DNA of 64,000 nucleotides from an uncultured delta proteobacterium (GTDB lineage Bacteria > Desulfobacterota > Desulfobaccia > Desulfobaccales > 0-14-0-80-60-11): contig CAWETI010000003.1 of NCBI GenBank assembly GCA_963812015.1, positions 2,080,001 to 2,144,000 on the forward strand. The letters run 5' to 3'. Of this stretch, positions 1 to 63,111 are shown piece by piece. The notes below the pieces were generated by a model. The model was not told the DNA's origin and made no database searches. It worked only from the letters and a program-made list of their open reading frames with translations. How positions within the stretch are numbered: the first letter of the stretch is position 1; the number at the start of each line of letters is the position of its first letter. Both the position numbers and the translations under genes were made by a program.

Positions 1-362
1 TCGCCATAGATCTCCGAGGTGGACGCCAGGAGGATGCGGGCCTTGACCCGCTTGGCCAGACCCAACATGTTCAGCGTCCCCAAGACGTTGGTCTTGATGG
101 TCTTCACCGGGTTGTATTGATAGTGCACCGGTGAGGCCGGACAGGCCAGGTGGTAGACCTGGTCGACCTCCAGCATGATGGGGTTCACCACGTCGTGGCG
201 GATCATTTCCAGCCGGGGATGGTCCCGCAGGTGGAGCAGGTTGGCCTTGGAGCCGGTAAAATAATTATCCAGGCAAAGAATCTCATGATCCTGGTTCAGC
301 AGGCGCTCCACCAGATGGGAGCCGATGAACCCCGCCCCTCCGGTGATCAAGATGCGGGCCAT
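1..362 (-). CDS. UDP-glucuronate decarboxylase-like NAD-dependent epimerase/dehydratase (5' part; runs off window start)
   Basis: Read manually on the minus strand: [22 protein letters not shown]...[44 protein letters not shown] upstream; not in the ORF track. Confidence 0.9.
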
Positions 363-44793: not shown

Positions 44794-44823
44794 GTTATAT
44801 CAAGTAGTTATGTAATTTAGTTA

Positions 44824-46011
44824 TTATCTATTGTTCACTTGGTCAACGATATGGTCAACACTTTGCAGAATATGACTATCCAACCACTCGGTATATTGCC
44901 TCATGGCCTGGTGCAGATCATCCTCAGAGGGGGCCATATAGTGAACGTCCATACCTTGAAGGGAATGGCCTAAGATCGTATCCCGATACACCTTATCAAC
45001 TCCCGCACTCAGCATATTGGTTTTGACCGTCCGCCGTATATCGTGGAAGGTGATGCCGTTTTGCTGATCCTGCCCGTATGGTATCCCGGCCTTACCACAA
45101 GCTGATATAAACGATTTCTTAATCCCGCCGGCAGTCACGATGGGCTCATGGTGATAGGTGAGCACTAAATCATGGTGGATTGCCCGCGTGATGTCTGCAA
45201 GCACTCGCTTGACTTGATGGTTAATCGGTATCACCTTGGCCTTGCGCTCTTTGGTGAGGTCTGCGGGTAGTCTGATAACCCACTTCTCCCGGTCGATATG
45301 GGACCATTGTAGCGCCCGGAGTTCTCCGGTCCTCATGCCAGTATTGAAGGCTAAGATAAGAAAAGCTCTTAGATGATCAGGCGCCACGGCCACTATCTTA
45401 AGATATTCCTCAATGGTGAGGGTTCGCTTCCTGGCATTAGCCGCCTTTTTCAGTTTCCGTTTTACTGTCCTAAATGCCTTGACCGTCCGGCCGTCCACCA
45501 GGTCATTATCGAAGGCTTTGGTGACCATTGTCTTGACCAGGGATATTTCCATGTCAACGGTAGCGGGGGCTCGGCCATCTTCTTCTCTCTTGTCCTGGTA
45601 CTCTTCGAGGTCCAGAGGTTTTAAGCTGCTCACGATCCGGTTTCCAAATACCCGGTTAAAATTGGCGATTCCCTGCTTGATTCGGGTATAGGAAGAAAGT
45701 TTCTTGACCGGGCTCAAGTCAAGATACCACTCCGCAAGCTCGGTGAAGGTCATGCGCTCCGATGGTACTTTTTCCAGAATACCGGGATTCTCATATTTTT
45801 GGGCCTTGCGCTTGCCCTCTGCGGCCTTTGCTTCCTTAATGAGATACCCCACAACCTCCCGGCGCTGCGTGCCGTTGGCGAGCCGGTAATTAACCCAGTA
45901 GCGGACCTTTTTTGATCCCTTGGCCTTAACCAGGTCTGCCCCGCAAACACAAATCCGATTCTTGACCGCTTGCTTCTTGTGGCATACGGGGCACTCAGCT
46001 AAGATCGCCAT
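44824..46011 (-). CDS. Tyrosine recombinase/integrase with N-terminal Cys4 motif
   Basis: TGMRTGEL, TK, FHDIRRT, LGH and HY catalytic residues intact; N-terminal CPVC...CVCG. Confidence 0.93.
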   Translation of the reverse strand: MAILAECPVCHKKQAVKNRICVCGADLVKAKGSKKVRYWVNYRLANGTQRREVVGYLIKEAKAAEGKRKAQKYENPGILEKVPSERMTFTELAEWYLDLSPVKKLSSYTRIKQGIANFNRVFGNRIVSSLKPLDLEEYQDKREEDGRAPATVDMEISLVKTMVTKAFDNDLVDGRTVKAFRTVKRKLKKAANARKRTLTIEEYLKIVAVAPDHLRAFLILAFNTGMRTGELRALQWSHIDREKWVIRLPADLTKERKAKVIPINHQVKRVLADITRAIHHDLVLTYHHEPIVTAGGIKKSFISACGKAGIPYGQDQQNGITFHDIRRTVKTNMLSAGVDKVYRDTILGHSLQGMDVHYMAPSEDDLHQAMRQYTEWLDSHILQSVDHIVDQVNNR

Positions 46012-46210
46012 GGTCTTTCTCCTTGTGTCCGGATTCCTTCGTTATCCGATGCTCCAGAGCCTCCAGGGCCAGAGGTAGGACGGGAGTGGGAACCTGAACC
46101 CCTCGCTCCCATCTACTAACGGTCATTACATCGACACCTAACGCCTGGGCCAGCTTGGTTTGGGTCAGGGCCCACCGTTTTCGCCATTCGGTTAGATCGC
46201 GTCCCTTCAT
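45995..46210 (-). CDS. XRE-family HTH protein overlapping the integrase start
   Basis: LTQTKLAQALGVDVMTVSRWERG. Confidence 0.88.
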   Translation of the reverse strand: MKGRDLTEWRKRWALTQTKLAQALGVDVMTVSRWERGVQVPTPVLPLALEALEHRITKESGHKEKDHGDLS

Positions 46211-46244: not shown

Positions 46245-47624
46245 GCGATAAAGTGTTTTTTTTGATATGCTTCCCTTATTCTCGTGTCACCCCTGTCCTC
46301 CAAAAATAGTTGCTGTATTTTCCAGTAGATAATGGGGACACGTATTTGGGGGGGGGACACGTCCGTTCGTGTCCGGCAGGGAACGTCGATGCGGAAGGAG
46401 GGGGGCGCTCAATCGCCCGCTCCCCAGGCCGGCCTGGCCAGACCCAGCCGTCCCTGCCCCGTGGGGACCGCCGCCGCACCCATGGCCCCGCCGGCCAGAC
46501 CCAGGGGTGCAGGGGGCAGAACCAGGGAACCGGAACAGGCCCAATAGCAGCTGGTCCCGAGCATAGCGCCGGACATTCTTTCTTGTGGTCGCCGCCCACC
46601 GCTGCCCTCGGACCTCGGTCGGCCAGTCGTCCGGTCTCGCCCCCGCCTCGCCCAAGCACCCCCCAGCCGCCCCCCCCTCTGCGCCCACGCCCATACCCCT
46701 AATCGCCGCCCGACACCGCCTGCCCGCGGGCCTCCCCTGCCGCGACCCGAATCGCGCCCCAGCCCCAGGCCCGGAACCGGAACCCGGAAACGGAAGGTGG
46801 TCCCCCCCTTACATCAATGCTCCGAGCGGACATTTTTTCATAAAATCATTCCCCGGGAAAAAACTCCCCCTGTGGCGGGACCAGCCCAAAAAATTTCATA
46901 TGAAAAATTCTTCTGGGATTTAGATGATGGTGGCCATAACGAAGGCGTTGGCGCCGGCAGTTGCCACTCCAGTGGGGAGGCCCATATAAGGATTGATGGA
47001 AAATTCCCACCACCGAAGGCTAAACGCAAGACCCGCGACAAAGTAGCGGCCTACGAGCGGGTATCGGGCCGGACGATGAGGAAGGCGATGGTTGCGGGGG
47101 AAAGTTCGGCCTGTTCCAGGGCGTTTTGATGTACACGGAGGGGGGCCATTGCCGTGTCCCGCCCCGGAGACAAAACCGCCGTTTGTTTCTACCTCGGGAT
47201 TCGCCTCTTCCGGGCTCCTGCGGAGAACACCTTTTGCCCCACCGACCTTACCCTTGGATTCTCCTTTCCGTGGGCGTGGCGGGGCTGTGAGTGGCCCTGA
47301 GCGCAGTCGATTTATCTTGTTTGGTGGAGGTCTTGGGGGCATCTCAGGTTGCCGGTACCCCAGGCGAGCGAGATCGGCCAGGAGAAGGGCGACGGCACCC
47401 GGGCCGATTTCTTCCAGCCTGCTGCTTCCGGCGCCAACACCGCCCGGTCTCGCACCCGTGGGCTTGAGTCTGAGTCGGAAACCGGAACACCTGGGGATAG
47501 CCCTCCCCCCCAAGTCGATGTGATCTCCAATCCCCTTTGCAGGGGTTCTGATATACGAACCATAAGGAAAAATTAACGAAAGACCGTATAGTGGCAACGT
47601 ATAGGGAAAAGGTTGTATAGGGTG

Positions 47625-47686
47625 AAAAAGGGAAAGCCACGAACGCTCTTTTCCAGTCTTCTGACCGGATCAGGCCTTCGTGGCTT
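47625..47686 (-). terminator. Terminator-like hairpin after the His-rich peptide; 5' arm overlaps a GCC-ACGAA-GGC hairpin
   Basis: AAGCCACGAA...TTCGTGGCTT followed by TCCCTTTTT. Confidence 0.65.
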
Positions 47687-47714
47687 AATTCTTTAGCAGA
47701 TTCGCGGCTTTCCG

Positions 47715-47876
47715 TTAATGACAGCAGGTGTGCCCGTGTTGGTGATGCCCATCGTCATGGGCGTGCTCATGGGAATGTTCCGTAGCCTCGTGACTATGCT
47801 CATGACCGTCATGGCTATGGGACGCCCCTTCGTGCCGGTGTTCGTGCTCATGTTTGTCCTTGGAATGGCAACACAT
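47715..47876 (-). CDS. 53-aa His-rich, CCH-capped metal-binding peptide (Hpn-like)
   Basis: MCCHSKDKHEHEHRHEGASHSHDGHEHSHEATEHSHEHAHDDGHHQHGHTCCH (19 His, 4 Cys); SD AGGAGG 8 nt upstream; below the ORF-track size cutoff. Confidence 0.85.
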   Translation of the reverse strand: MCCHSKDKHEHEHRHEGASHSHDGHEHSHEATEHSHEHAHDDGHHQHGHTCCH

Positions 47877-47906
47877 CTTTCATCCCTCCTTTCCCTCTTT
47901 TCTATC

Positions 47907-47935
47907 AAGATAAACTGCCTCTTATCTCATGTCAA
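47907..47935 (-). promoter_or_regulatory. Sigma70 promoter of the His-rich peptide with an AGATAA-N8-TTATCT inverted repeat
   Basis: TTGACA-tgagataagaggcagtt(17 nt)-TATCTT on the minus strand. Confidence 0.6.
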
Positions 47936-48033
47936 TTGGACCAGCTTAGAATTAATTAACCAAGATTATGCAACCAACTTGACCAACTCTATCAAAAATT
48001 GATCTTAGGGACCTTTTCTCTGAGAGGCTGTGT

Positions 48034-48885
48034 CTAATCAGTGCTTAAGCGAAACGCCAGGGGGATTTCAATGGTCAACTTCTGACGGTTCAGGTCGGCG
48101 GGGAATGGAGGAAAGTGACCAACCTTGCGAATGGTTTCTTTGGCAGCTTCATCCAGCAGATCTTGCCCCGAGGAGCGGCTGATTCGGGAGGATTCGATCT
48201 GGCCCCCGGAGCCGATGGTAAATACCATGACCACTACCCCCTGGAGTTGGCGGCGGCGGGCCATGAGGGGATAATCTTTCTGTTTTTCCAGGAGTTGGCG
48301 GACCACCTTTAGATAGCCCTGGAGCGCCGAACCGGCCCCGGAGCCCGGCCCCTGGCCTTGGCCAATACCACCGCCGGCCCCGGTCCCCCGTCCCCCGCCC
48401 TGGCCCCCCGCGCCTGTGCCCGAAAGGCCACCCGGGACGCCCGGGCCACTGGCCCTGCTGCTGGTGATCGCGGTATCCGAGGGTTTAGCCCTGGTGATCG
48501 CGGGTGGCGGCGCCGGTGCAAGGATTACCGGGGCTACACTGGGTTCCAGCGGTGGCGGTGGAGCCAGCTTGATCTTGGGCGGCTTTGGAGGTTTGGCCGG
48601 AGGTTTATGGGGTGCGGGGGGTTGCGACGGCTTAGGCGCGACGGCATCTGGCCTAGTCACCGGGCTGGGCCGACCGCCGCCGCCACCGGCGGGGCCTGGC
48701 TTGAAGGGTACCAGGGTAATGGCTTCCACCGGGACCACCACTTTCGGCTTCGGGGGTATTTGGTGGAAGACCGCCACCACGGTGGCCACGATAAGGCCAT
48801 GGACCAGTAGGGAACCCAGCGCTCCCCAGAGAAACGCTCCCCGGGGATTCCAGGCCCCGCCCACTTGCTGATAACCCCAGGCCAT
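48034..48885 (-). CDS. tonB: Energy transducer TonB
   Basis: TM with SLLVH, Pro-rich linker, C-terminal YPLMARRRQLQG...SSG..LLD.AA. Confidence 0.9.
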   Translation of the reverse strand: MAWGYQQVGGAWNPRGAFLWGALGSLLVHGLIVATVVAVFHQIPPKPKVVVPVEAITLVPFKPGPAGGGGGRPSPVTRPDAVAPKPSQPPAPHKPPAKPPKPPKIKLAPPPPLEPSVAPVILAPAPPPAITRAKPSDTAITSSRASGPGVPGGLSGTGAGGQGGGRGTGAGGGIGQGQGPGSGAGSALQGYLKVVRQLLEKQKDYPLMARRRQLQGVVVMVFTIGSGGQIESSRISRSSGQDLLDEAAKETIRKVGHFPPFPADLNRQKLTIEIPLAFRLSTD

Positions 48886-48889
48886 TTGG

Positions 48890-49285
48890 CTACTTTTGCT
48901 CCACCTCGATGCCGATGCGCTGCACCTTAAGACCCCGGAGGCGGTCCATCACTTCGATGAGGCGACCGTGGCGGGTGTCGGTATCCGCGGCGATGATGGC
49001 TTGAGGTTCCTTGCCCTGTTGCTGGGCGGTGAACACCTTCTCGAAATCGCCATCCTGCGCCAGCTTGACCCCGTTGACCGCGATGTGGCCCTCCCGGTCT
49101 ATGCTGATGATGATGGGGACGCTCTCCAGTTTGTTGGCCTGGGCGGCCTTGGGCAGGGCGATGGCGAAGGTGCGGGGCATCATCACCGTGGCCGTCAACA
49201 GAAAGATGATGAGGATGACCAGGACGATGTCCACGAAGGGGGTCATGTTGATCTCGGTAATGGGCCCGTGGATGTGGCCTTTCAT
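48890..49285 (-). CDS. exbD: Biopolymer transport protein ExbD
   Basis: EINMTPFVDIVLVILIIFLLTA; I.AD....HG.LI.VMD. Confidence 0.92.
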   Translation of the reverse strand: MKGHIHGPITEINMTPFVDIVLVILIIFLLTATVMMPRTFAIALPKAAQANKLESVPIIISIDREGHIAVNGVKLAQDGDFEKVFTAQQQGKEPQAIIAADTDTRHGRLIEVMDRLRGLKVQRIGIEVEQK

Positions 49286-49977
49286 GCCAGCCTCCCCGCC
49301 TGGCGGGCAGCCTTGAACAGTTCCGCATCCGGGAGAGCGATCTCCCCGGTCCCGGCGGCGCCGTCCAGATGGGCCAGGAGCAGCTGCTCCAGAAACCGGG
49401 AACGCTCCTGGACCACGTGCAGGCGACGGTGGAAAAAGTTGTACATCACCACCGCGGGGATGGCCACCAGCAGGCCAATGGCGGTGGCCACCAGGGCTTC
49501 GGCGATGCCGGCCATGACTGCGGGGCCTCCGCCCCCCTCGGTCAGGGCCAGGTCCTTGAAGGCATGCATGATGCCCAGGACGGTGCCGAACAAGCCGATG
49601 AAAGGGGCGTTGGCTCCCAGGGTGCCCAGAAAGCTCAAGCGCCGCCCCAGGAAGAGGCCGACTCGGAGCCGCTCGCCTTCCATGAGGTCCTGGACCGCGC
49701 TCTTGCCCCGGGGAATCTCTTTGAGGCCCGCCAACAGCACCCGGGCTTCCAAACCGGATTCGGCCTCGCAGCGGGAAACGACCTGAGGCCAGTCGCCTTG
49801 TTTGAGAGCGGGTTCGATCTCGGCCACAAAGCGGTCCGGGTCAAAGCGACAGCGGTAAAAGGTTAGGGCCTTGTCGATCATGATCGCCACGGAAGCGACG
49901 CTCAAGCCCAGGAGCAGCCACAGCACCCAGGCGCTGCCGCCCAGAGCCATATTGAGCAGGGCCTTGGTTATATCCAT
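49282..49977 (-). CDS. exbB: MotA/TolQ/ExbB proton channel protein
   Basis: APFIGLFGTVLGIM and GIAEALVATAIGLLVAIPAVV.YN; SD GGAGG before ATG 49977. Confidence 0.92.
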   Translation of the reverse strand: MDITKALLNMALGGSAWVLWLLLGLSVASVAIMIDKALTFYRCRFDPDRFVAEIEPALKQGDWPQVVSRCEAESGLEARVLLAGLKEIPRGKSAVQDLMEGERLRVGLFLGRRLSFLGTLGANAPFIGLFGTVLGIMHAFKDLALTEGGGGPAVMAGIAEALVATAIGLLVAIPAVVMYNFFHRRLHVVQERSRFLEQLLLAHLDGAAGTGEIALPDAELFKAARQAGRLA

Positions 49978-49988
49978 GCATCCTCCCG

Positions 49989-50139
49989 AAAAAAAACAAG
50001 CCATGCGGCTGCGGTCCTTCCGGGCCGCGGTTGCCTTCATGGCTTGGATTTACGTTATTGAGCTGGTTAGTTCGATCTTCAGGGAGTTCAATCTCCCTGG
50101 ATGGCAGAAATTATAGTTCTCCTCGGCATCGGATGTCAA
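49989..50139 (-). promoter_or_regulatory. exbB promoter and attenuator-like leader (twin hairpins plus terminator)
   Basis: TTGACA-18-TATAAT; CAGGGAG-ATTGAA-CTCCCTG; 36 nt; GCC-ATGAA-GGC overlapping terminator CAAGCCATG...CATGGCTTG-T8. Confidence 0.7.
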
Positions 50140-50210
50140 CCAGAATCGTTTTTCAGGCTCCCCCGGTGCAAACGATGGCTTGCTTGATTTCCTCCCCTTT
50201 GGAATATTGC

Positions 50211-50356
50211 TTGACAGCAAATCCGGAAGGCGCTATATAAATTTGAAATTATCGGGGGGCATGAAGCCTCACCGTTTAGATTAGATTCCCAAAAAGCTTT
50301 TTAATGACCACGAAGGTCTGGCGGCAGAACGCCGCCCGATATTTGTGGTTTTTTTT
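50211..50356 (+). promoter_or_regulatory. TBDR operon promoter and attenuator-like leader (twin hairpins plus terminator)
   Basis: TTGACA-17-TATATA; GGGGC-ATGAA-GCCTC; 35 nt; GACC-ACGAA-GGTC overlapping terminator ACCACGAA...GGCGGC/GCCGCC...TTTGTGGT plus T run. Confidence 0.7.
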
Positions 50357-50561: not shown

Positions 50562-52937
50562 ATGCGTCGATGGCTCTGGTGCGCAGCGATTTGTGGATTC
50601 TCGTGCTTATTGATCCTGGGATTACAGTCGCAAGCGCGGGCTCAAGAAGTGGAAGAAAAGGTCAAGGTCTTGGCCCCGGAAGAGGGCCAGAAGGGGGAAC
50701 CCCCGGCTACCGTCCAGACTGAAGGCCAAAAAGCGGAAACTCCGACTCCCGCCCCGGCTCCCAAGGAAAAAGCGGAGGCCCTGGAGAAGATCGTGGTGAC
50801 GGCCACCAGGACCGAGAGGAATCCGGACGACGTCCCGGCCAGCATTACGATCATCACCAAAGATGACATTAAGAAACAGAACATCCAGACGGTGGACGAG
50901 GCCCTGGCCCAGGTCCCCGGGGCCTTCGACCGCCGGGGCAAGGGCTGGCAAGACACCCTGGCTAACGTGAATCTCCGGGGCTTCCCGGGCGATAACCAGA
51001 AACGCACCCTGATCCTCTTGGACGGCCAGAATATCTCCACCGCTTACACCAACAACGTGGTCTGGAACAGCATGCCGGTGGAAAATATCGAGCGCATCGA
51101 AGTGATCCGGGGGCCGTTTTCCGCCCTCTACGGCGGCAGCGCCATGGGCGGGGTCATCAATATCATCACCAAGACCCCCCAGAAACTGGAAATGCTGGCC
51201 CAGGGCAGTTACGGCACCTATGATGCCTGGACCTCTTACCTGGGGGCGGGGGACCGCCTGTGGGATAAAGTGAGCATCCAGGTAGGGTTCAATTCTCGTA
51301 TCACCACCGGCTACCCCACCAGCCTGGTGCAAAAAACGACCGCCGCCTTAGCCACTACGACCAAAACCAATGTGGTGGGCTGGCAGCCTACCTTAACCAC
51401 CACCGGCACCCCCACGAACACCATCGGCAACACCGGCGATAATAACTGGAAGGATTACAGCTTCAACGGCAAAATCAGCTGGGATATCGCCCCGGGCCAT
51501 AAGGTCACCTTCAGCACCCTGCAGAGCTGGTACGACTATGGCTATGCCAGGTACAATTCCTACTTGAACAATTCAGCCACCGGCGCCAGGGTGACTAGTG
51601 GGACCGTGGGCTTGTTCGGCACCAATACGCAGTTCAGCAGTCTCACCCAAGGCGCCTTCTTGAGCGGCGATGGCCAGAATCAAACCCAGGTTTACAACCT
51701 GAATTCCGAACACAAGCTCACGGAGACCACCAAAGTCAAGGTCCATGCCGGCCTGGTGAACCAGCCGGACAACTGGTACACCACGCCCAGTTCCTCCAGC
51801 GCCCTGACGACGTTCGGCGGCGGCCCGGGGACCGTGTCCAGCACTCCCAGTCAGAATTGGGTGGGGGAGGTGCAGGTGGACCAGGCCATCGGACAGAAGC
51901 AGCAGTTGGTGGGCGGCCTCTCCTATAATGCCGGCTGGGCGCGCAACTCGCAATATAACCTGTACGACTGGCGGAGCCCTGGCTCGCATATAAACTTCAG
52001 CTCGCTGGGCGGCGGCCGGGACAGCAATATCGGGGCCTATCTTCAGGACGAAATCGCCTGGCATCCCAAGTTCAATACGGTGCTGGGGGTGCGGTTGGAT
52101 CGGTGGGAGACCTTTGGGGGCAGTTACATGAAAGCCACCGGCACTCCTATTGTGGACCTCCCCAGCCGGGACCAAACTGCGGTCAGCCCCAAGCTCGCCG
52201 CGCTCTACCGCCCCTGGGAGTGGATGACTTGGAAGGCCTCGGTGGGCCGCTCCTTCCGGGCCCCCAATATTTACGAACTCTACGTCACCTGGCAGTCCAG
52301 CACCGGCACCCTGTATAAGAGCAACCCCGATCTTAAACCCGAGACCGCCCTCTCCTGGGAGATCGGCACCACCCTGAAACCCTTTAAAGGGACCACGTTC
52401 ACCGCCACCTATTTTCAAAATTTCGTCAATGACTTGATTTACCGGACTACTGATCCTGCCGATCCAACGGGCAAGACCCAGAACTATTTTAATGCCGCCA
52501 AGGCCCAGATTCGAGGGGTGGAGATAGAAATTAACCAGAAGCTCTGGTCCTGGCTGGAAGTCTTCGGCAACACCACCCTGGTGGACCCCAGGATCAAGGA
52601 AAACCCCTATAATCCGATTTCGGTGGGCAAAAATCTCACCTATACCCCCCGGCAGCAATTCAACTTTGGGGTCACGGCTACATACTGGAAGGTCAAGGCC
52701 AACCTTTCAGGCCGCTATAACAGCCGACTGTCGACCCGGGACGACAACGGCGATTCTGTCTATGGGGTTTACGGCGCCTATGATCCCTTCTTCACCTTGG
52801 ACTCCAAAATAATCTTTAGCCCCGTGAAGTATGTGGACATGTCCTTTGCGGTAGATAACATGCTCAACCGGGAATACTACTACTATTACCGCACTCCCGG
52901 CCGGACCATCTGGACCATGCTGACGCTTAAATATTGA
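50562..52937 (+). CDS. TonB-dependent outer-membrane receptor
   Basis: Signal peptide, EKIVVTATRTE TonB box region, IERIEVIRGPFSALYGGSAMGGVINIITK plug, FRAPNIYELY, NPDLKPE and terminal aromatic residue. Confidence 0.95.
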   Translation: MRRWLWCAAICGFSCLLILGLQSQARAQEVEEKVKVLAPEEGQKGEPPATVQTEGQKAETPTPAPAPKEKAEALEKIVVTATRTERNPDDVPASITIITKDDIKKQNIQTVDEALAQVPGAFDRRGKGWQDTLANVNLRGFPGDNQKRTLILLDGQNISTAYTNNVVWNSMPVENIERIEVIRGPFSALYGGSAMGGVINIITKTPQKLEMLAQGSYGTYDAWTSYLGAGDRLWDKVSIQVGFNSRITTGYPTSLVQKTTAALATTTKTNVVGWQPTLTTTGTPTNTIGNTGDNNWKDYSFNGKISWDIAPGHKVTFSTLQSWYDYGYARYNSYLNNSATGARVTSGTVGLFGTNTQFSSLTQGAFLSGDGQNQTQVYNLNSEHKLTETTKVKVHAGLVNQPDNWYTTPSSSSALTTFGGGPGTVSSTPSQNWVGEVQVDQAIGQKQQLVGGLSYNAGWARNSQYNLYDWRSPGSHINFSSLGGGRDSNIGAYLQDEIAWHPKFNTVLGVRLDRWETFGGSYMKATGTPIVDLPSRDQTAVSPKLAALYRPWEWMTWKASVGRSFRAPNIYELYVTWQSSTGTLYKSNPDLKPETALSWEIGTTLKPFKGTTFTATYFQNFVNDLIYRTTDPADPTGKTQNYFNAAKAQIRGVEIEINQKLWSWLEVFGNTTLVDPRIKENPYNPISVGKNLTYTPRQQFNFGVTATYWKVKANLSGRYNSRLSTRDDNGDSVYGVYGAYDPFFTLDSKIIFSPVKYVDMSFAVDNMLNREYYYYYRTPGRTIWTMLTLKY

Positions 52938-52956
52938 TGGGGGCGGCACACGACTG

Positions 52957-53949
52957 ATGACTGGCAGAAACTTTATAATCTCCCGATGGGCCTGGGTGAT
53001 GGGCGGATTGGTGCTGCTCCTGGGCCTCAGCGGGACCATCCTGGGGACCTCCACCGAGAGGCCCGGCCCGGGGGGAGCCCCGGGGCAAAACCTCTCCCGG
53101 GAAGCCCACCGGGTGGTCCTCTTCGAATGTTACGAAACCGTTGCGGCCCTCCAGGCCTGGGATCGCGTCGTCGGGATTTCCCGCTATGCCTATGACAATG
53201 ACCTCCTGAAGCGGCTGCTGCCCCATCTCCGGCAGATTCCCTCGCCTGGCTCCGGCTTCGACGTCAACCTGGAGGCCTTGCTGGCCGTTAAGCCTGACCT
53301 GGTGGTGACCTGGACGCGCAAGCCGGAAACCCTTGAGCACCTGAAACGCCAGGGAATTCCGGTACTCACGTTTTATCCCGAAAGCCTGGTTGACCTGTAC
53401 CGGGAACTCCAGCAATTGGGCCAGGTGTTAGGCCAGGAGGCTCGGGCCCGGGAGGTAGCGGGCTCCATGGCCCGGAGCCTGGCCGCCCTGCAAGCGCGCC
53501 TGGCCGGGGTGCCGGAAGAATCCTGGCCCCGGGTGGCATGGCTGTGGGGCAAACCCACCACCATCAATGGGAACCGAGGAGTGATGGCCGAGTTGATCCG
53601 GATGGCCGGGGGCCGCAACGTGGGTGCGCATCTGGATAGTTTGAACCAGGAAATCTCCATGGAGACCATCATCGGGCTGTCTCCTCAAGTGCTGGCCATT
53701 TGGGGCTCGGCCTCCTATACCGCCCAGGACCTGCTCCGGGACCCCAAGTGGTCCTCCACCCCGGCAGTACAAAGCCAGCGGGTATTCAAGGCGGCCCGGG
53801 TCTCCACCTGGTCACCCCGGGCGGTGGTGCTGGCCTGGTGGCTGGGTCACTGCTTTCATCCCCAGGTGATTTCCGCGGTCGACTGGCGTCAGGCCGCCGA
53901 CGACATTTACCGGCAGTGTTTCGGGATTCCCTATGAGGAAGGCCCATGA
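52957..53949 (+). CDS. BtuF/FecB-type periplasmic binding protein
   Basis: DRVVGIS, NLEALLAVKPDLV, AGGRN, ISMETI and TPAVQSQRVF. Confidence 0.88.
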   Translation: MTGRNFIISRWAWVMGGLVLLLGLSGTILGTSTERPGPGGAPGQNLSREAHRVVLFECYETVAALQAWDRVVGISRYAYDNDLLKRLLPHLRQIPSPGSGFDVNLEALLAVKPDLVVTWTRKPETLEHLKRQGIPVLTFYPESLVDLYRELQQLGQVLGQEARAREVAGSMARSLAALQARLAGVPEESWPRVAWLWGKPTTINGNRGVMAELIRMAGGRNVGAHLDSLNQEISMETIIGLSPQVLAIWGSASYTAQDLLRDPKWSSTPAVQSQRVFKAARVSTWSPRAVVLAWWLGHCFHPQVISAVDWRQAADDIYRQCFGIPYEEGP

Positions 53950-54947
53950 GGAGTAACTCCTGGCTCTACTGGGGGTTGATCCTATCGCCCCTGCCAGTGT
54001 TTCTCCTGGCCCTTCAGGTGGGAGCGTATCCCGTCTCCTTGTCCGACCTGTGGCGCCTGCTGGCTCTAACCCCCAGCCAATCGCCTCTGCCGGAGCAGAT
54101 CCGGGCCATCATCGTGGACGTGCGGTTGCCCCGGATTGTCCTGGCCATGCTGGTGGGGCTGTCCCTGTCGGTCTCCGGCGCCACCTTGCAGGCGGTGTTC
54201 CGCAATCCTCTGGTGGACGCCTTCATCCTGGGCCTTTCCGCGGGCGCCGCCTTCGGTTGCGCCGTGACCGTAGCCTGGCTGCCCATGGTGCCCATCCAGG
54301 TAGGGGCCTTTGTCTGCGGTCTGGTTGCCGCGGTGCTGACCTTTACTATGGCTCGCATCCGGGGGGAAGTGCCGACCCTGTCGCTGATTCTGGCCGGCGT
54401 GGTGGTGTCCGCCTTTTTCACCGCCCTGGTCTCCATTATCAAGTTTCTGGTGGACCCCATGAAGCTGGCCAGCATTGTGTTCTGGCTCATGGGTAGCCTG
54501 GCCCTGGCGGACTGGCCTTCGGTTATCAAGGTCCTTCCCTGGATGGCGGCGGGGGTCGCCATTCCCTGGCTGGGGCGCTGGCGCCTTAATGCCCTGTCCA
54601 TGGGGGATGCTGAGGCCAAGGCCCTAGGAGTTGACGTGGCCCGGGAACGGGGTCTATTTATCCTGGCCGCCTCCGTAGCCGTAGCCGCGGCGGTGTCAGT
54701 GAGCGGCATCATCGGCTGGGTGGGACTGATGATCCCCCACATCGTGCGCATGGCGGTGGGGCCGGACCATCGCCGGGTGATACCTCTGTCCATGGCCGCC
54801 GGGGCCAGTTTCCTGGCCCTGTCCGATACCGTGGCCCGCTCTACGGCTTCGGGGGAAATCCCTGTGGGGATTATCACCACTTTGGCCGGCGCCCCCTTTT
54901 TCATCTACCTGATGAAAAAAGGCGGTCAGGATTCCTGGAAGGCATGA
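53946..54947 (+). CDS. FecCD/BtuC-type ABC permease
   Basis: VRLPRI, QAVFRNPLV, FWLMGSL, SGIIGWVGLMIPH and EIPVGIIT. Confidence 0.93.
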   Translation: MRSNSWLYWGLILSPLPVFLLALQVGAYPVSLSDLWRLLALTPSQSPLPEQIRAIIVDVRLPRIVLAMLVGLSLSVSGATLQAVFRNPLVDAFILGLSAGAAFGCAVTVAWLPMVPIQVGAFVCGLVAAVLTFTMARIRGEVPTLSLILAGVVVSAFFTALVSIIKFLVDPMKLASIVFWLMGSLALADWPSVIKVLPWMAAGVAIPWLGRWRLNALSMGDAEAKALGVDVARERGLFILAASVAVAAAVSVSGIIGWVGLMIPHIVRMAVGPDHRRVIPLSMAAGASFLALSDTVARSTASGEIPVGIITTLAGAPFFIYLMKKGGQDSWKA

Positions 54948-55711
54948 TCCGGGCCCGCGACCTCCATCTGCGTCTCAACGGGCGAGGCATCCTGAACGGC
55001 GTGAGCCTCGCGGCCCATCCCGGGGAGGTCACGGTGATCGTGGGGCCCAACGGCTCCGGCAAGACCACCCTGATGTTGTGCCTGAGCGGGCAGTTGACGC
55101 CGGACCGGGGGGCCATTACCCTGGCGGACCACAATCTTAATGGCCTCAAACGCCGTACCCTGGCCCGGATATTGGCCACCGTGCCCCAGGAGCACCATCC
55201 CGTATTTCCTTATGCGGTGCGGGAGGTGATCCTCCTGGGCCGGGTCGCCCGGGTGGGTTATTGGTCGCAACCCGGACCCCGAGATCTGGCGGTGGTGGAG
55301 GAAGTTCTCAATCTGCTGCATCTTCAGCTCCTGGCGGACAAGCCCTATACTCACATCAGCGGCGGGGAGCGGCAACTGGTGCTCATCGGTCGGGCGTTAG
55401 CCCAGGAGCCGCAAATCCTCCTGTTGGACGAACCCACTAGCCACCTGGATTTTAAAAACCAGGTGCTGATCCTGAAGCTGATCCGGGAGTTGGCTAAAAA
55501 CCAGGGACTGACGGTGCTGCTCACCCTGCACGACCCCAACCTGGCGCTGCTCTTTGCCGACCGTGTGGCTCTCCTGGATGAGGGGCGGGTGGTGGCTGAG
55601 GGGACTCCCGTCGAGGTCATACACCCTGAGGCAATGGCCTCGCTCTACGGCATCCCGGTGGAAATGCTGGCCCAGGGAGATAAACGACTGCTGTACCCCA
55701 AACTGACATGA
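54944..55711 (+). CDS. FecE/BtuD-type ABC ATPase
   Basis: GPNGSGKTT, SGGERQ, LLLDEPTSHLD and LHDPNLA. Confidence 0.93.
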   Translation: MIRARDLHLRLNGRGILNGVSLAAHPGEVTVIVGPNGSGKTTLMLCLSGQLTPDRGAITLADHNLNGLKRRTLARILATVPQEHHPVFPYAVREVILLGRVARVGYWSQPGPRDLAVVEEVLNLLHLQLLADKPYTHISGGERQLVLIGRALAQEPQILLLDEPTSHLDFKNQVLILKLIRELAKNQGLTVLLTLHDPNLALLFADRVALLDEGRVVAEGTPVEVIHPEAMASLYGIPVEMLAQGDKRLLYPKLT

Positions 55712-56541
55712 TCGCCATTTCGAACCTGACCAAGTATTACAGGAGTATCCTGGCCCTGGAAGATCTGACCCTGGAGATCGGGGCGGGGGAAGTCTTCGGG
55801 CTACTGGGTCCCAACGGCGCGGGCAAGACCACCACCATCAAGATCCTCACCGCCCTGGCCTTTCCTACCCGGGGGACCGCCCGGATCGCCGGCTTCGACG
55901 TGGTCAGGGAGCGCCCCCAGCTGAAACCCCTCATCGCCGTTTGCCCTCAAGAGATCAACCTGGACCGGGAACTCACCGCGTTTGAAAACCTCTGGTTTTA
56001 TGGCCGTCTGTTTAAGGTTCCGGAGATCTCCCGCCGCATTATGGAACTCTTGGAATGGGCCCAGTTGGAACAGCGGGCCTATGACCGGGTTAAAGGTTTT
56101 TCCGGCGGCATGCAGCGGCGTTTGTTGATTGCCCGGGCGCTCATGTCCCGCCCCCGGGTGCTCTTCCTGGATGAGCCCACCGTGGGCCTGGACCCCCAGA
56201 TTCGGCGGCAACTGTGGGACATGATCCGGCAACTTCAGGGCGAAGGGATAACGATTCTCCTGACCACCCACTACATCGAGGAAGCCGAATCGCTCTGCGG
56301 CCGGGTAGGCGTCCTTAATAAGGGCCGTCTTATCGCCCTGGATTCCCCCCAAAACCTCACCGCCGGGGTGGGCGGCTATGTGGTGGAATCCGTGAACGGC
56401 GCTCGGCGGTCCTATACCTTAGTGAAAGACCGGGAAGCTGCCTACGCCAGGGCTCAAGAGGAGACCGCGGGCGTGCTTATCCGCCAGGCCAACCTGGAGG
56501 ATGTCTTTATTCAGCTTACGGGGGAGCGCCTGAGCCAATGA
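55708..56541 (+). CDS. ABC-2 (DrrA/NodI-like) exporter ATPase
   Basis: [38 protein letters not shown] and [10 protein letters not shown]. Confidence 0.92.
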
Positions 56542-57284
56542 CCATGAACTGGGCCACCATCTTTTTAAAGGACATGCTCCTGTTTCAGCGGCGGCTGCTC
56601 CGGCTGGGGTATGTGATGTCCACGCTGTTTGCCCCCCTGCTCTATCTGGTGGCCTTCGGTCTGGGGTTGGGCAAGCAGGTGGCCATGCGCAGCGGGGTAA
56701 CCTATCTGGATTTTCTCCTGCCCGGGTTAGTGGCTATGAGTTCCATGACCAACTCCTATACCTGGGTGGCTAACAGCCTGAACATGGGCCGCCTCTACTT
56801 CCGCACCTTTCAGATTTATCTGCAGGCGCCGGTGTCTCCCTGGGAGATCGTCGCCGGCCAGACCCTGGCCGGCATGGTTCGGGGCCTGTTTGCCGCCTCG
56901 GTGATCCTGGGCCTGGGATTGGTCCTGGGGACCCATTTGCATTTCACCCTGTTCTTTGTGCTGGGGCTGCTGCTTAACGGCCTGGTTTTCGCCGCCTTCG
57001 GGGTGGTGGTGGGTCTCAAATCCAAATCCCATGAGGATACCGCCACTTTCACCAATTTTTTCATACTCCCCATGGCTTTTTTCTGCGGCACCTTTTTCCC
57101 TGTGGACTCCATGCCCTGGTGGGCCCAGAAGATCATCTATCTGCTGCCCTTGACCCATACCAACCAGTTGCTGCGGTCGCCTGTCTGGGGTTCGGAAACT
57201 ATGGTTTCTCTGGTCTTGTTGGGTGCAGCCGCCGGTTTCTGCATAGCCCTATCCATCCTGTTCATCCGGAGGTACAGCGAATGA
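56538..57284 (+). CDS. ABC-2 type exporter permease
   Basis: YLDFLLPGL, PMAFFCGTFFP...P.W and LPLTH. Confidence 0.9.
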   Translation: MTMNWATIFLKDMLLFQRRLLRLGYVMSTLFAPLLYLVAFGLGLGKQVAMRSGVTYLDFLLPGLVAMSSMTNSYTWVANSLNMGRLYFRTFQIYLQAPVSPWEIVAGQTLAGMVRGLFAASVILGLGLVLGTHLHFTLFFVLGLLLNGLVFAAFGVVVGLKSKSHEDTATFTNFFILPMAFFCGTFFPVDSMPWWAQKIIYLLPLTHTNQLLRSPVWGSETMVSLVLLGAAAGFCIALSILFIRRYSE

Positions 57285-60200
57285 CGGATTCGCTCATTAA
57301 AGGCGTGGCCATAATGTGGAACGCTTATGTGCCCACTCTGGTCAGCGCAGCCCGGGAATTTCCCTGGATAGATCTGAAGGTCTATTCCCACCGCCTGGTG
57401 GGGGAAAACCCGGAAGTCCTGGACCGGGCCTTGCAAGATATGGAGTCCGCCCAATTTATCCTGCTTTATCGCACTCCTGACGCCTTCTGGGAGAGCGTGG
57501 ACCAGCGACTCAAGCAACTGGCGGACCACGTTCCCCTCATCTCCACCGGCGGTGACCCTTCCCTGTGGACCCTGTCGTCGGTGAATCTTGAGATCGCCGC
57601 CAATGCCTCTAATTACATTATCCGTAACGGCCTGGAGAACTTCCGGCGCCTGCTGGCCTATCTCGGCAAAGAGGTCCTGGGCCGGGAACTGGAGGTTCTG
57701 CCGCCCCAGGAGCTTCCCTGGGAAGGGTTCTATCACCCCCGGGCCCAGGGACATTTTGAGCGTCTGGAAGATTACCTGGCCTGGTACCGGGACCAGGGCT
57801 GGTCCCAAGAGCCCCTGGTGGGGATGATGTTCTCCCGGGGGGATTGGGTCACCCCCAACCTGGAACTGGAAGATTATCTCATCCAAGCCTTGGAGGCTCG
57901 GGGTCTGGGGGTGATCCCGGTGTTCTACTATTCCTTCAAAGACGAGAATCTGGGAAACCGGAGCGGCGAAGAGATCATCCGGGATTATTTCCTGAACCAC
58001 GAGGGCCGCCCCCGGATCGCGGCGCTCATCAAGCTCACTGCCTTTCTCCTGGCCAGCCGGCGGGGCACCGGCCGCGACCCGTCCACGGCCCGCCCTGGCC
58101 AGGCATTATTGGCGCAACTCGACGTGCCGGTGATCCAACCCCTCACCTCGTATTACAAGACCACGGCCCAATGGGAGGCAGACCCCCAGGGGCTGGGGGC
58201 CGAAGTGGGCTGGAGCCTGGCCCTGCCGGAATTCGAGGGGGTCATCGAGCCATTGATGGTGGCCGCAGGGCTCTCCCACGAGGAATTGGGGGCCGAACTC
58301 ATCGCCGGTCGGGGACCCATCCCTAACCGGGCGGATCACCTGGCGGAACGGTTGGCGCGCTGGGTCCGCCTGCGGCAGAAAACCTCGACGGCACGCAAGG
58401 TGGCCATCATCCTGCACAACAACCCTTGCGCCTCGGTGGAGGCCTCGGTGGGGGCCGGGGCCCACCTGGACACTTTGGAAAGCACGGCTCGAATCCTCCA
58501 GACCCTGAAGCGGGCGGGATATGCCATTGAGAATCCCCCCGCGGACGGCAAAGAACTCATCGACACCATCATGGGCCGAAAGGCCATCAGCGAGTTCCGT
58601 TGGACCACGGTGGAGGAAATCATCAGCAAGGGGGGCCACCTGGCCCTGGTGCCGGAAGCTGACTACCGCGCCTGGTTCGGCCTCCTTCCGTCCACCCTGC
58701 AGGCGCGCCTCATCGAAGCCTGGGGCGAGCCCCCCGGCCAGGCCCAAAACGGCATCCCCGCGGCGATGGTCCACCAGGGACAGATCGTGGTCACCGGCGT
58801 GCTTTTTGGGAACGCGGTGGTCTGCGTCCAGCCCAAGCGGGGCTGCGCCGGGGCGCGGTGTGACGGCCGGGTTTGCAAAATCCTCCACGACCCGGATGTG
58901 CCGCCGCCCCACCAATATCTGGCCACTTACCATTATCTGGATAAAGGGTTCGGCGCTGATGTGGTCCTGCACGTGGGCACCCACGGCAACCTGGAGTTTC
59001 TGCCGGGAAAGACCGTGGGGCTGTCCGGGGGTTGCTGCCCCGACGCCGTCCTGGGTCATCTGCCCCATCTTTATATCTACAACGCCGACAACCCGCCGGA
59101 AGGCACCATGGCCAAGCGCCGCAGCTACGGGGTCCTGGTGGACCATATGCAGACGGTGATGACCTCCTCCGGCCTCTATGATGAACTGGGCGAGTTGGAC
59201 CGGCTGCTGGGAGAATACGAGCGTTTGAAGGACTTGGAACCGGGCCGGGCTCACCTGGTGGAGCACCTGATCCTGGAGACCCTGGAGAAGAGCCGCCTCA
59301 ACCAGCAATTGTCCCTGACCCCGGAGATTTCTTTCGATGAGACGGTGCGCCGCATTCATGAGAGCCTGTCGGTGCTGCGCAACACCGCTCTCCCCGATGG
59401 CATGCACATCTTCGGGGAATTGCCCCAGGGGGAACGGCGGGCTGATTTTCTCCACGCCATCCTGCGCTTTCCCGGCGGAGGCCCCTCCTGGCGGCGACTC
59501 CTGGCCCGGTTGCTGAAGCTCAATCTGGAAGACGACGAATCGGGACGGGCCGCGGAGGCCGTGGACCAGGCCGGGCGTACTCTTATCAGCCGTTGGCTGG
59601 CGGCCCCGGAGCAGAACCTTACGTCCTTGATCCGGGAAATCGCTCCGGAAGCGGACCTGGATGCCCTCGAAAGCGACCTGGCCTTCTTCGATACCCGGCT
59701 CCAGGACCTGGTGGACCGGCTGGAGGCTTCCCGGGAGATGGAGGCGCTGCTCCGGGGGTTCGCCGGCGGCTATATCCCCCCCGGACCCTCCGGCCTCATC
59801 ACCCGGGGCCGGGACGACGTCCTGCCCACGGGCCGGAATTTTTACACCCTGGACCCCCAGCGGGTGCCCAGCCGCACCGCCTGGGAGGTGGGGCAGCGCC
59901 TGGGCCAAGCCCTCCTGGACAAATACTTCACCGAAACCGGGGAGTTTCCGGAAAACGTCGCCCTCTTCTGGATGGCCAACGACATCATGTGGGCCGACGG
60001 CGAAGGCATGGCCCAGATTATGTACCTGTTGGGGGTGAAACCCCGCTGGCTAAGCAACGGCCGGGTCCAGGGGTTCGATATCATTCCCTTAAGTGAACTC
60101 AACCGCCCCCGCATCGACGTGACGGTAAGGGTGTCGGGTATCACCCGGGACAATTTCCCCAACTGCGTGGAGTTACTGGATGAAGCCATCCAGGCGGTGG

Positions 60201-61153
60201 CGGCCCTGCCGGAAGACCCCGCCCAAAATTTGGTCCGGCGCCACAGCCTGGAACTCATGGAGAAACTTGGCCACAACCCCGGGGACGGCGCGGCCTGGCG
60301 CCAGGCCACCTATCGCATCTTCGCCAGCAAACCCGGCACCTACTCCGCCGGCACCCAACTGGCGGTGTACGCCTCCGCCTGGCAGGAGGAGACGGACCTG
60401 GCCCAGGTCTTCCTCTACTGGAACAGCTATGCCTACGGCAAAGATGTCTTCGGCGCCGAAGCCGCTCCGTCCCTGGCCCACGCCCTGAGCCACGCCTCGG
60501 TGACCTACAACAAGGCCGTCACCGATGAGTACGATCTGTTCGGCTGCTGTTCTTATTTTGGCAACCACGGCGGCCTCACCGCCGCGGCCCGGCACCTGTC
60601 CGGCAAAGAGGTCAAGACCTATTTCGGCGACACCCGGGACCCGGAACGGGTGACGGTGCGCCATTTGTCCGAGGAAATCCGGCGGGTGGCCCGGGCCAAG
60701 CTCTTGAACCCCAAGTGGATCGACGGCATGAAGAACCACGGCTACAAGGGCGCCGGCGAGATCAGCAAACGGGTGGGGCGGGTCTACGGCTGGGAAGCCA
60801 CCACCCAGGAAGTGGATGACTGGATCTTTGACGATATCACCCGGACCTTCGTCCTCAACCCGGAAAACCGGGAGTTCTTCCAGAAGGAAAATCCCTGGGC
60901 CCTGGAGGAGATCGCCCGGCGCCTGCTGGAGGCCGAGCAGCGGGGTCTCTGGCAGGCCGATCCCGAAGTCCTGGCGGAACTGAAGCAGCTCTACGTGGAG
61001 GTCGAAGGCTGGCTGGAAGAAAATATGGGAGAGGCCGCGGGGGGCCATTTTCAGGGTGGGGCCGTGGACGTGGTCACCGCCGACGAGGTGGAAACCTGGA
61101 AAGCGGCCCTGCACAAGACCCTGGGGACAATCTTCACCGGAGGTAAGAAATGA
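57281..61153 (+). CDS. CobN/magnesium chelatase H family subunit
   Basis: [54 protein letters not shown] and RLLEA..RGLW; ATG 57281 overlaps the permease stop (ATGA). Confidence 0.93.
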
Positions 61154-63111
61154 CGCTATCTCGATCTGTATATCCGTTTGGGGCCATCGTCGGGCAGGAA
61201 CGGTTGAAAAAATCCCTGATCCTGAACGCCATCAATCCCCGCCTGGGCGGGGTGCTGATCCGGGGGGAGAAAGGTACCGCCAAGTCCACCGCGGCCCGGG
61301 GCCTGGCGGAGTTGCTGCCTCCCATCCGGGTGGTGGCCGACTGCCCCTTCCACTGTGACCCCGGCGAGCCCGAGCAGTGCTGCGATTCCTGCCGGAAACG
61401 GGGGGTCCAGGACGCCCTGCCCACCCGGGAGCGGCCCATGCCGGTGGTGGACCTGCCCCTGGGCACCACCGAGGACCGGCTCCTGGGAACCATCGACCTG
61501 GAGAAGGCCATCAAGACCGGGGAGAAACATTTTGAACCGGGCATTCTGGCTGCCGCCCATCGCGGCATCCTCTATGTGGATGAGGTCAACCTGCTGGACG
61601 ACCACCTGGTGGATGTCCTCCTGGATGCCGCAGCCATGGGGGTGAACGTGGTGGAGCGGGAGGGTATCTCCTTCACCCACCCGGCCCGGTTCATCCTGGT
61701 GGGCACCATGAACCCGGAAGAGGGCGAGCTTCGCCCCCAACTCCTGGACCGCTTCGGGCTTTGCGTGGAAATCGGCGGGTTAAAAGACCCGCAGGCCCGC
61801 ATGGAGGTGGTGGAGCGCCTCCTGGACTATGAAGAAGCCCCCGAATTGTTTATCAATCAGTGGCAACCGGAGCAGGAACGGCTGCGCCAATCCATCACTG
61901 CGGCCCGGGAGCGTCTGGCGGCGGTAAACTTCGCCAAAGACATGCTGAATCTGATCACCACCATCTGCCTGGATCAGGGAGTGGATGGCCACCGGGCCGA
62001 CATTTATATGCTCAAGACGGCCCGCACCCTGGCGGCCTTCCACGAGCGCCAGGAAGTCACCGAAGACGATGTCCGGGAGGCCGCGGAGCTGGTGCTCCCC
62101 CACCGGCTGCGCCGCCAACCCTTCAGCGAAGCCCAGATGGATCAGGAAAAGCTGGAGGAGAGTATCCGCAAACACCAGCAGCAGCACGAACCGCCACCGC
62201 CATCAGATTCTCCGCCCCCGGAGGAACCTCCTCCCCCTCCCCCATCCGAGACGCCTCCGGGAAGCGGGGAAATTTCCTTTGAGGCCGGCTCCCCCTTCCC
62301 GGTGCGCCCCCTGGACCTGCCCCACGACCGCCAGCCCAAGGAGTCCAAGGGCCGTCGCACCCGGGCCGTCACCAACGACCGCAGCGGCCGTTACGTGCGG
62401 GCGGCCATGACCCCGGCGGGGCCGCCGGACCTGGCCTTGGACGCCACCCTCCGGGCCGCCGCCCCTTATCAGCCCGTGCGGGACAAAGGCAACCTGGCCG
62501 TGGCCATTGCTGAGTCCGATCTGCGTCACAAGGTCAGAGAAAAGCGCATCGGCCACCACATCCTGTTCGTGGTGGACGCCAGCGGCTCCATGGGGGCCAA
62601 TCAACGCATGGTGGAAACCAAAGGCGCCATCCTCTCCCTCCTCCTGGACGCCTACCAGAAGCGGGAGCGGGTGGGGCTGGTGGTCTTTCGGGGGGAGCAG
62701 GCCCACCTGACGCTGCCCTTTACCCACAGCATCGAGCAGGCCCGGAACTGCCTGGAGGACCTCCCCACCGGGGGCAAGACGCCGCTCCCCCGGGCCCTGC
62801 AACTGGCTCACGAAGTGATTCAGCGGGAGAAGCTCAAACATCCTAAGGATGCCTTTCTCCTGGTGCTCATCTCCGACGGCAAACCCAATATCAGCCTGGG
62901 AGGCGGCTCTGCCCTGGCCGACACCCAAGAGATGGCGGCGCATCTCCGGGGCCTGGGCGCCAACTCCCTGGTGCTGGACACCGAGGCCGGGTTCCTCAAT
63001 CTCAGTTGCCTTCCCCAGGTGGCCGCCGAACTTAAGGGAAAATACTACAAAATCGAGGACATCCGGGCCTCAGAAGTCGTGGCCCGCATCGACGAGATCA
63101 TGGTCGGGTAA
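61150..63111 (+). CDS. ChlI/ChlD-type chelatase AAA+ / vWA fusion subunit
   Basis: [46 protein letters not shown], Pro-rich linker, MIDAS DASGSM and SDG. Confidence 0.93.

Follow-up and report, generated by a model that had tools for sequence, protein, structure and literature searches.

The 64-kb window analysed here (64,000 nt of contig CAWETI010000003.1, from an uncultured delta proteobacterium of the Desulfobaccales) carries a TonB-type uptake locus and, directly behind it, a small gene for a histidine- and cysteine-rich peptide. The minus strand reads exbB, exbD, tonB and then the peptide gene, which has a promoter-like site of its own, and the divergent operon on the plus strand encodes a TonB-dependent receptor, a Peripla_BP_2 binding protein, a FecCD permease, two ABC ATPases, an ABC-2 permease, CobN and a ChlI/ChlD-VWA fusion. 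The peptide gene, the family to which it belongs and an RNA element that it shares with these operons and with others in the genome are the subject of this report. The features are collected in Table 1; all coordinates are positions within the window in forward-strand numbering, and G000 stands for the window's own genome.

Table 1. Features of the peptide locus and the adjoining uptake operons in the window
Feature	Position	Strand	Basis or remark
His/Cys-rich microprotein gene (MCCH...CCH)	47715..47876	-	53 codons; exact translation
Shine-Dalgarno sequence AGGAGG	47885..47890	-	8 nt ahead of ATG
Promoter-like site TTGACA-17-TATCTT of the peptide gene	47907..47935	-	consensus scan
Inverted repeat AGATAA-N8-TTATCT over the -10 region	47908..47927	-	arms 47927-47922 (AGATAA) and 47913-47908 (TTATCT)
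3' RNA element	47613..47717	-	from the stop codon; fold, alignment A3, consensus structure
tonB	48034..48885	-	Pfam TonB_C 4.9e-19; directly upstream of the peptide gene
exbD	48890..49285	-	Pfam ExbD 3.5e-26
exbB	49282..49977	-	Pfam MotA_ExbB
Leader RNA before exbB-exbD-tonB	49993..50106	-	UUGAA loop, CCAUGAAGG core, terminator stem, U8; model R2 47.6 bits
Leader RNA before receptor/ABC/CobN operon	50247..50356	+	model R2 64.3 bits
Divergent receptor/ABC/CobN operon	50562..63111	+	Pfam

The microprotein gene and its family

Exact translation of the minus strand yielded the peptide MCCHSKDKHEHEHRHEGASHSHDGHEHSHEATEHSHEHAHDDGHHQHGHTCCH, with 19 His and 4 Cys among its 53 residues, an MCCH start and a CCH just before the stop codon, as the first-pass annotation, made from the sequence alone, had described it. 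The histidines mostly alternate in H-x-H fashion with acidic residues, and the longest His run is two. Most of the expression signals proposed in that annotation were also recovered and proved to be common in the family, as counted at 51 bacterial homologue loci. An SD-like (Shine-Dalgarno-like) sequence lies within the final 16 nt upstream in 49 of the 51 copies, matching the strong AGGAGG of the window, and a TTGAYN-16..18-TWNNNT site is found 53-67 nt before the ATG at 41 of them, in line with the gene's own promoter proposed for the window. The inverted repeat over the promoter is present as described, but its proposed function as an operator for a metalloregulator of the Fur, Zur or NikR kind was rejected because a comparable repeat occurs in just 3 of the 51 upstream regions; it is probably there by chance. 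No NikR (NikR_C) was found in the window's genome, which is 99.86% complete, and its Fur-family genes number six. On the 3' side, the 111 nt past the stop codon fold as a long hairpin with CUUUUUC behind it (-39.7 kcal/mol; z = -5.4 relative to shuffled sequences), which agrees with the predicted terminator-like structure. One wetland metatranscriptome run (word share 0.05) gave nothing usable over the peptide gene and is neutral on its transcription. Positions 46800-47600 were covered by contigs of this metatranscriptome, which are mostly 85-95% alike and therefore come from relatives.

Homologues are conserved in related loci. The window's own genome and 40 relatives were searched in all six frames, and 33 of these 41 genomes have full-length open copies (E <= 4e-13, covering residues 1-53 or 1-52 free of stops), with open frames mostly of 53-65 aa; of the remaining genomes, one gave a weak match and seven gave none. 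None of the 17 other species in the genus lacks the gene, and a second copy, 81% identical, lies in the window's genome at G000:C3:1061395-1061553. A species-level pattern scan with one genome per species returned 64 loci, most of them in metagenome-assembled genomes of Desulfobaccales/Desulfobacca, some in Nitrospira/Nitrospiraceae and Thermodesulfovibrionales (forms of 52-53 aa), and four in Methanothrix/Methanotrichaceae, where a 38-aa form retains both ends.

Among 65 fetched loci, the MCCH...CC frame is intact in 56, and a further seven are intact with Q, T or N as residue 4; of the other two, one possibly uses a GTG start and the other (L079) is without the amino end. Twenty-nine columns are invariant among 20 close members and 15 among 29 members when distant ones are included (Met1, the Cys pairs, eleven His and one Glu), C2, C3, C51 and C52 being retained in 29 of 29 aligned members. 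Because residue 4 varies in this way and the last residue is K, R or Q instead of His in several loci, the CCH caps noted at both ends hold for the window peptide, whereas across the family only the Cys pairs of these caps are invariant.

The selection test was carried out on 50 distinct coding sequences of 162 nt. Variable columns at codon positions 1, 2 and 3 numbered 23, 22 and 52 of 54, the mean pS was 0.84 and the mean pN 0.15, and the median dN/dS over 235 unsaturated pairs was 0.10, with CAT and CAC freely interchanged (505 versus 450). The alternative reading frames are often open too, owing to the composition of the gene. The codon-position pattern and the dN/dS are the signature of a translated frame, and on this comparative evidence the open reading frame (ORF) is a real, conserved protein-coding gene.

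In the databases the family is nearly invisible. The peptide had no match in Pfam (E <= 0.01) or NCBIfam, the family profile retrieved 0 chains from the PDB, and five of five exact stand-alone family sequences tested were absent from a collection of 15 billion proteins. A profile search of 1.84 billion representatives gave just 9 matches at E <= 0.001, most of them shortened or partial versions (out-of-frame by eye); the two informative ones (P0006 and P0007) carry the His-rich module as an amino-terminal extension of an HMA metal-binding domain. The word-indexed protein search was unable to define the family because it returned only two weak candidates, and the nearest entries in the ESM Atlas, two unnamed 53-aa clusters labelled 'hypothetical protein' (scores 0.94 and 0.91), serve as a lead only. 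Absence from the protein collections is consistent with gene callers missing the peptide gene. The open-access literature search found no description of the peptide family or of the RNA element. Paralogues of about 102 aa, in which two His-rich modules stand in tandem and the terminal Cys pairs are missing, were seen in two relatives (L028 at ~6800-7307 of G008:C9 and L027 at ~13000-13600 of G038:C45); both these and the HMA fusions fit a metal-binding module.

An RNA element at the 3' end of the gene and in the uptake leaders

From the stop codon to the U tract, about 100 nt match the coding region in conservation, and this holds even when Desulfobaccales are compared with Nitrospirota. The element consists of a long stem (GGAAAGCC.CG / CGUGGCUUUCC) and U tract around an invariant AGCCACGAAGG and a covarying hairpin. 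RNAalifold folded the alignment into an outer stem of 11 bp (GGAAAGCCACG with CGUGGCUUUCC), a small GCC-ACGAA-GGC hairpin and a second hairpin, with double changes at 8 of the 20 pairs. A covariance model of the 3' element (R1) was searched against 60 bacterial and four archaeal sources and scored 42-112 bits at the 3' end of the peptide gene in all of the former and in none of the latter; at two more bacterial loci outside the R1 search the element is visible in the alignment. As a predicted terminator, it would at least end the transcript.

R1 also gave weak matches (17-32 bits) in the leaders of the neighbouring operons, where a shorter relative of the 3' element was recognised, and a second model (R2) was built on 31 such leaders. 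Their architecture comprises a promoter-like site, a hairpin with an AUGAA-type loop, about 30 nt, RCCAYGAAGGY, an inner hairpin, the complementary YRUGGY arm and a U run, the whole RNA being about 107 nt long with the core CCAYGAAGG. R2 found seven leaders in the window's genome, two of them in the window. The targets of the others are cbiMNQO (upstream of the second peptide copy), a paralogous receptor/ABC operon, a paralogous exbB operon, a further receptor and a 358-aa unknown protein. These five leaders occupy, in order of contig name, C2:741875-741980, C2:1659515-1659623, C2:1662643-1662756, C2:1662897-1663005 and G000:C3:1058211-1058314. In the leader alignment 90.7% of the cells pair, compared with 82.6% in shuffles and at most 54% with slid partners, and double changes occur at 10 of 16 pairs, a result biased towards structure because the rows were chosen with the help of a model. 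The leader was found in 38 of the 41 genomes of the six-frame search, six of them without the peptide gene, and one genome (G020) has the peptide and no leader match.

Because the element is common to the 3' end and to the uptake leaders, the peptide gene is tied to the adjacent tonB/receptor/CobN locus, as the first-pass annotation had proposed, and to cbiMNQO as well. The shared RNA element is probably regulatory, and the leader RNA is a candidate riboswitch or attenuator. At the gathering score, Rfam 15 detected in the whole window a tRNA-Arg only, and at E <= 10 no Rfam family, RF00174 included, matched positions 47560-47960 or 49940-50570. Five ordinary cobalamin riboswitches (RF00174) are present elsewhere in the genome, one of them before CbiK. 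The leaders were therefore rejected as cobalamin riboswitches, there being no RF00174 match in them and genuine ones elsewhere. They resemble the cobalamin and NiCo riboswitches in ending in a terminator and in leading receptor, ABC importer, CbiMNQO and CobN genes, but differ from both in that the three RNA elements of the window are without an Rfam match at that lenient threshold. The NiCo riboswitch, moreover, turns on efflux, not uptake.

The leader also bears on the annotation of exbB, which probably starts at the ATG at 49977 (after GGGAGG) and not at the longest-ORF start at 50040, as the latter falls within the terminator of the leader. Between the leader terminator and the receptor start on the other side (~50440-50500, plus strand), a G/C-rich stem with a G run, GCGGCACCCCGGCAAGAGTCCCAG and a C run was observed, and a nearly identical stem occurs in the paralogous receptor leader on contig C2; it may be a second regulatory element.

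Neighbouring genes and the nickel/cobalt question

The tonB context of the window turned out to be a minority arrangement: in a tblastn tally of genes within 6 kb of the peptide gene over 66 loci, ExbB, ExbD or TonB was found in five, the window included. The commonest neighbours are CbiM (32 loci) and CbiQ (33 loci) of an energy-coupling factor (ECF)-type nickel/cobalt importer, and the peptide gene often stands right after cbiO, as the second copy in the window's genome does. DUF4198 (22 loci), a convergent CbiK (18) and TonB-dependent receptors (10) rank after them. Altogether 53 of the 66 loci have an uptake gene; for the 41 loci flanked by at least 4 kb on each side, the figures are 35 with an uptake gene and 27 with CbiM/CbiQ, so that the proposed tie to metal uptake stands, above all to nickel/cobalt importers. 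Pfam annotation of neighbours covered 206 ORFs out of 32 loci. A recurrent neighbour of 155-177 aa matches the 'NikL family nickel/cobalt ECF transporter subunit' below the cut-off (65 and 41 bits versus 100), and many loci are therefore read as DUF4198 - CbiM - NikL-like - CbiQ - CbiO. In Nitrospirota the order is receptor - DUF4198 - DUF4198 - NikL-like - peptide.

The paralogous cluster on contig C2 of the window's genome (locus L103) reads leader - exbB - exbD - tonB - DUF3842 - CooT (63 codons), CooT holding the place that the peptide holds in the window. In a complete relative that lacks the peptide (G027), TonB - CooT - methyltransferase follow the same leader RNA. CooT is described as a small nickel chaperone of CO dehydrogenase with Cys2 as the nickel ligand (PMC6006190). 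The window's genome encodes acetyl-CoA synthase (ACS), HypA and CooT, and a demand for nickel is therefore expected.

Nickel is favoured over cobalt because of the DUF4198 - CbiM - NikL-like - CbiQ - CbiO layout at many loci, because in two genomes the same RNA-marked regulon includes CooT, and because the cobalamin genes of the window's genome use ordinary cobalamin riboswitches. Zhang et al. 2009 (PMC2667541) assigned nickel uptake to NikK/NikL and cobalt uptake to CbiN, though some exceptions exist. The five cobalamin riboswitches precede receptor/BtuF-like, CbiK, permease/amidase-like and HMA genes (ORFs by eye) and no CbiMNQO, and do not separate nickel from cobalt for the ECF importer.

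Some further observations concern the substrates and surroundings of these systems. One of the cobalamin riboswitches (G000:C2:282304-282489) lies ahead of a small HMA-domain (CxxC) ORF, a pairing that hints at a cobalt-linked HMA chaperone. At four loci of G027 (L112, L113, L115 and L116) a leader-marked TonB-dependent receptor is followed each time by a gene of the tetrapyrrole-methylase family, accompanied twice by DUF4198 and once by a flavin reductase; the substrate of these receptor systems may be a metal-tetrapyrrole or a chelate. In the window, a tRNA-Arg(TCT), a tyrosine integrase and a small HTH gene lie in succession at 44718-46210, a type I restriction S subunit lies at 63123-63947 at the far end of the CobN operon, and an integrase is found near the paralogous cluster on contig C2 as well; the peptide/tonB/receptor/CobN cluster may thus lie on an integrated island. 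The intervening positions 46276-47600 hold only implausible ORFs, and the non-coding stretch just past the peptide terminator (47355-47600) is a dispersed repeat with copies 77-83% identical elsewhere in the genome.

Probable role of the peptide and the alternatives

Taken with the conservation of the gene, the recurrent nickel/cobalt uptake neighbours suggest that the product is probably a cytoplasmic binder of nickel, or possibly of cobalt, acting as a buffer, a store or a hand-over protein. The metal that it handles would be the one imported by the adjoining TonB-dependent and CbiM/NikM-type systems. The terminal Cys pairs may close around a shared metal site, as the first-pass annotation had proposed. 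Removal of Met1 is expected ahead of a small residue such as Cys, and an X-X-His (ATCUN-type) metal site needs a free amino terminus with His third in the mature chain. Cys being the small second residue here, the mature chain is predicted to start H2N-Cys-Cys-His, and this terminus could offer amine, amide, thiolate and imidazole ligands for a square-planar Ni(II) site, by analogy with Cys2 of CooT. Since residue 4 is Q, T or N at the seven loci mentioned above, the X-X-His terminus is not family-wide. The numerous His, Asp and Glu residues may provide additional, weaker sites. AlphaFold2, run on the 29-sequence alignment, modelled a four-strand beta meander (mean pLDDT 68.6, pTM 0.35), in which the strands and the H-x-H alternation would put the histidines on one face.

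A bolder extension of this reading, which we think unlikely, holds that a single undescribed RNA sensor used in two orientations balances uptake against sequestration and that the peptide represents a new class of nickel-binding microprotein. With nickel (or cobalt) in ample supply, the 5' leader terminator would then switch the TonB-dependent and CbiM/NikM importers off, while the same ligand-dependent fold at the 3' end of the peptide mRNA would give a stable transcript end and hence more sequestering peptide, the latter with an amino-terminal Cys-Cys-His hook common to bacteria and Methanothrix.

Several points weigh against the nickel/cobalt binder, and some of them favour a zinc or unspecific divalent-metal buffer that would serve the response to zinc starvation rather than nickel/cobalt supply. 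The evidence at hand does not single out one metal, and the confidence of the structural model is no more than moderate. Since all loci are mutually related, the locus counts are descriptive and non-independent. Of the 66 loci, 13 show no uptake neighbour; none of the four archaeal loci has a nickel/cobalt importer as neighbour, and one has only ZnuA nearby. Since six relatives carry the leader without the peptide gene, the peptide is dispensable for the regulon. On the side of cobalt, the NCBIfam equivalog for cobaltochelatase CobN matches the window CobN above its cut-off, and a CbiM+PDGLE fusion gave a faint CbiN-like match. On the side of zinc, which His and Cys bind well, Zur controls clusters of a TonB-dependent receptor with CobN-like genes in some proteobacteria. 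L029 and L089 have Fur-family genes no more than about 1 kb from the peptide (L049 has another about 6 kb off), and ZnuA is near the peptide in L089 and L084. Zcp, described as the first DUF4198 protein to be characterised, is Zur-regulated, captures zinc and also binds Co, Ni and Cu in vitro (PMC12663993). We nevertheless regard zinc as an improbable answer: CbiM/CbiQ/CbiO, a family known for nickel and cobalt (PMC2667541), are the commonest neighbours, a NikL-like subunit recurs, CooT sits in the same RNA-marked regulon, and none of the seven leader-marked operons in the window's genome contains a typical zinc-regulon gene such as ZnuABC.

The other alternatives have less in their favour. 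If the transcript acted mainly as RNA, the 3' element would be a decoy, a sponge or a trans-regulator for the factor or ligand that controls the leaders, and the peptide would be secondary; this would suit an element that is as conserved as the coding part around its invariant AGCCACGAAGG, that is found at every bacterial copy searched and whose core recurs before seven operons, but the strong purifying selection on the frame and the strong SD, the archaeal copies that keep the peptide without the element, and the six genomes with leaders and no peptide gene make it quite improbable. A copper or general heavy-metal chaperone or detoxifier is very unlikely, as no copper efflux or resistance genes were found among the annotated neighbours and the HMA fusions lack the Cys pairs, even if P0006 and P0007 join a related His-rich module to an HMA (CxxC) domain, under the name 'copper chaperone' in one source, and an X-X-His amino terminus also binds Cu(II). 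We give little credence to the precursor of a modified, metallophore-like peptide (a RiPP): the small size and the Cys/His-rich composition would allow it, and genes for a B12-binding radical SAM protein and a methyltransferase lie a few kb off in L009, L031 and L050, whereas across the 66 loci no modifying enzyme stands next to the gene with any consistency, no split into leader and core is apparent in a peptide conserved over its full length, and there is no pairing with an exporter. Least credible of all is an untranslated origin, be it a non-coding RNA with an ORF open by chance or a His-codon attenuation leader peptide. The low-complexity composition, the often open other frames and the terminator directly after the gene could be taken that way, but the codon-position pattern, the low dN/dS and the start and stop conserved in 33 of the 41 genomes speak for translation, and the downstream genes are mostly convergent or absent, so that there is nothing to attenuate.

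The cytoplasmic nickel (or cobalt) binder finds its closest counterpart in Hpn, to which the first-pass annotation had likened it. Hpn is a protein of 60 aa that makes up about 2% of the cell protein, binds 5 Ni per monomer (Kd 7.1 uM), is induced by NikR and is often missed in annotation; it is described from gastric Helicobacter only, and its histidines lie mostly in stretches (PMC4671568). The likeness holds for composition and kind: the peptide shares with Hpn and Hpn-2 the size, the very high His content, the two Cys pairs, the character of a small cytoplasmic protein, the link to nickel supply and the misses in annotation. It does not extend further, as the peptide arranges its His as H-x-H with runs of at most two, has its Cys pairs at the very ends, ranges over Desulfobaccales, Nitrospirota and Methanothrix, and occurs in a genome in which no NikR was found. 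Pfam, NCBIfam and PDB searches detected no homology, and the peptide is set apart from Hpn on this basis, without a direct sequence comparison; the family would be an analogue of Hpn, the closest in kind, and not a homologue.

CooT (PF10133) resembles the peptide in being small, in having a Cys at position 2 and in its position after tonB in the paralogous operon and in G027. It differs in its seven-strand fold, in binding one Ni per dimer and in not being His-rich, and the peptide has no match to the Pfam CooT family. HypB, UreE, SlyD and HspA have His-rich tails that hold several Ni(II) at micromolar affinity. CooJ, with 16 His and 4 Ni per monomer (PMC6006190), is comparable to the peptide in its His-rich segment, which binds several Ni(II) at micromolar affinity in the maturation of a nickel enzyme. 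In CooJ and these four proteins, however, the His-rich parts are tails or domains of larger folds, whereas the peptide is a stand-alone gene of 53 aa with conserved spacing and terminal Cys pairs. The HMA metallochaperones (CopZ-like) are related to it through the fusions of the His-rich module in P0006 and P0007, but the window peptide has neither an HMA domain nor a CxxC motif. The peptide family is thus new and non-homologous but of a known kind of protein, and the RNA element attached to it is undescribed.

Detailed knowledge of small His-rich nickel handlers has so far come mostly from gastric Helicobacter and from the tails of maturation factors. If the role proposed here is correct, a stand-alone conserved family would mean that cytoplasmic nickel/cobalt buffering by microproteins is wider than thought. 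Its carriers are nickel- and corrinoid-heavy organisms, namely sulfate reducers with the acetyl-CoA pathway, Nitrospirota and acetoclastic methanogens. The peptide would offer a compact natural scaffold for metal binding, and it is a clear case of a conserved gene that gene callers apparently miss. The RNA element, absent from Rfam, marks a regulon and could be the long-missing control of nickel uptake in organisms without NikR.

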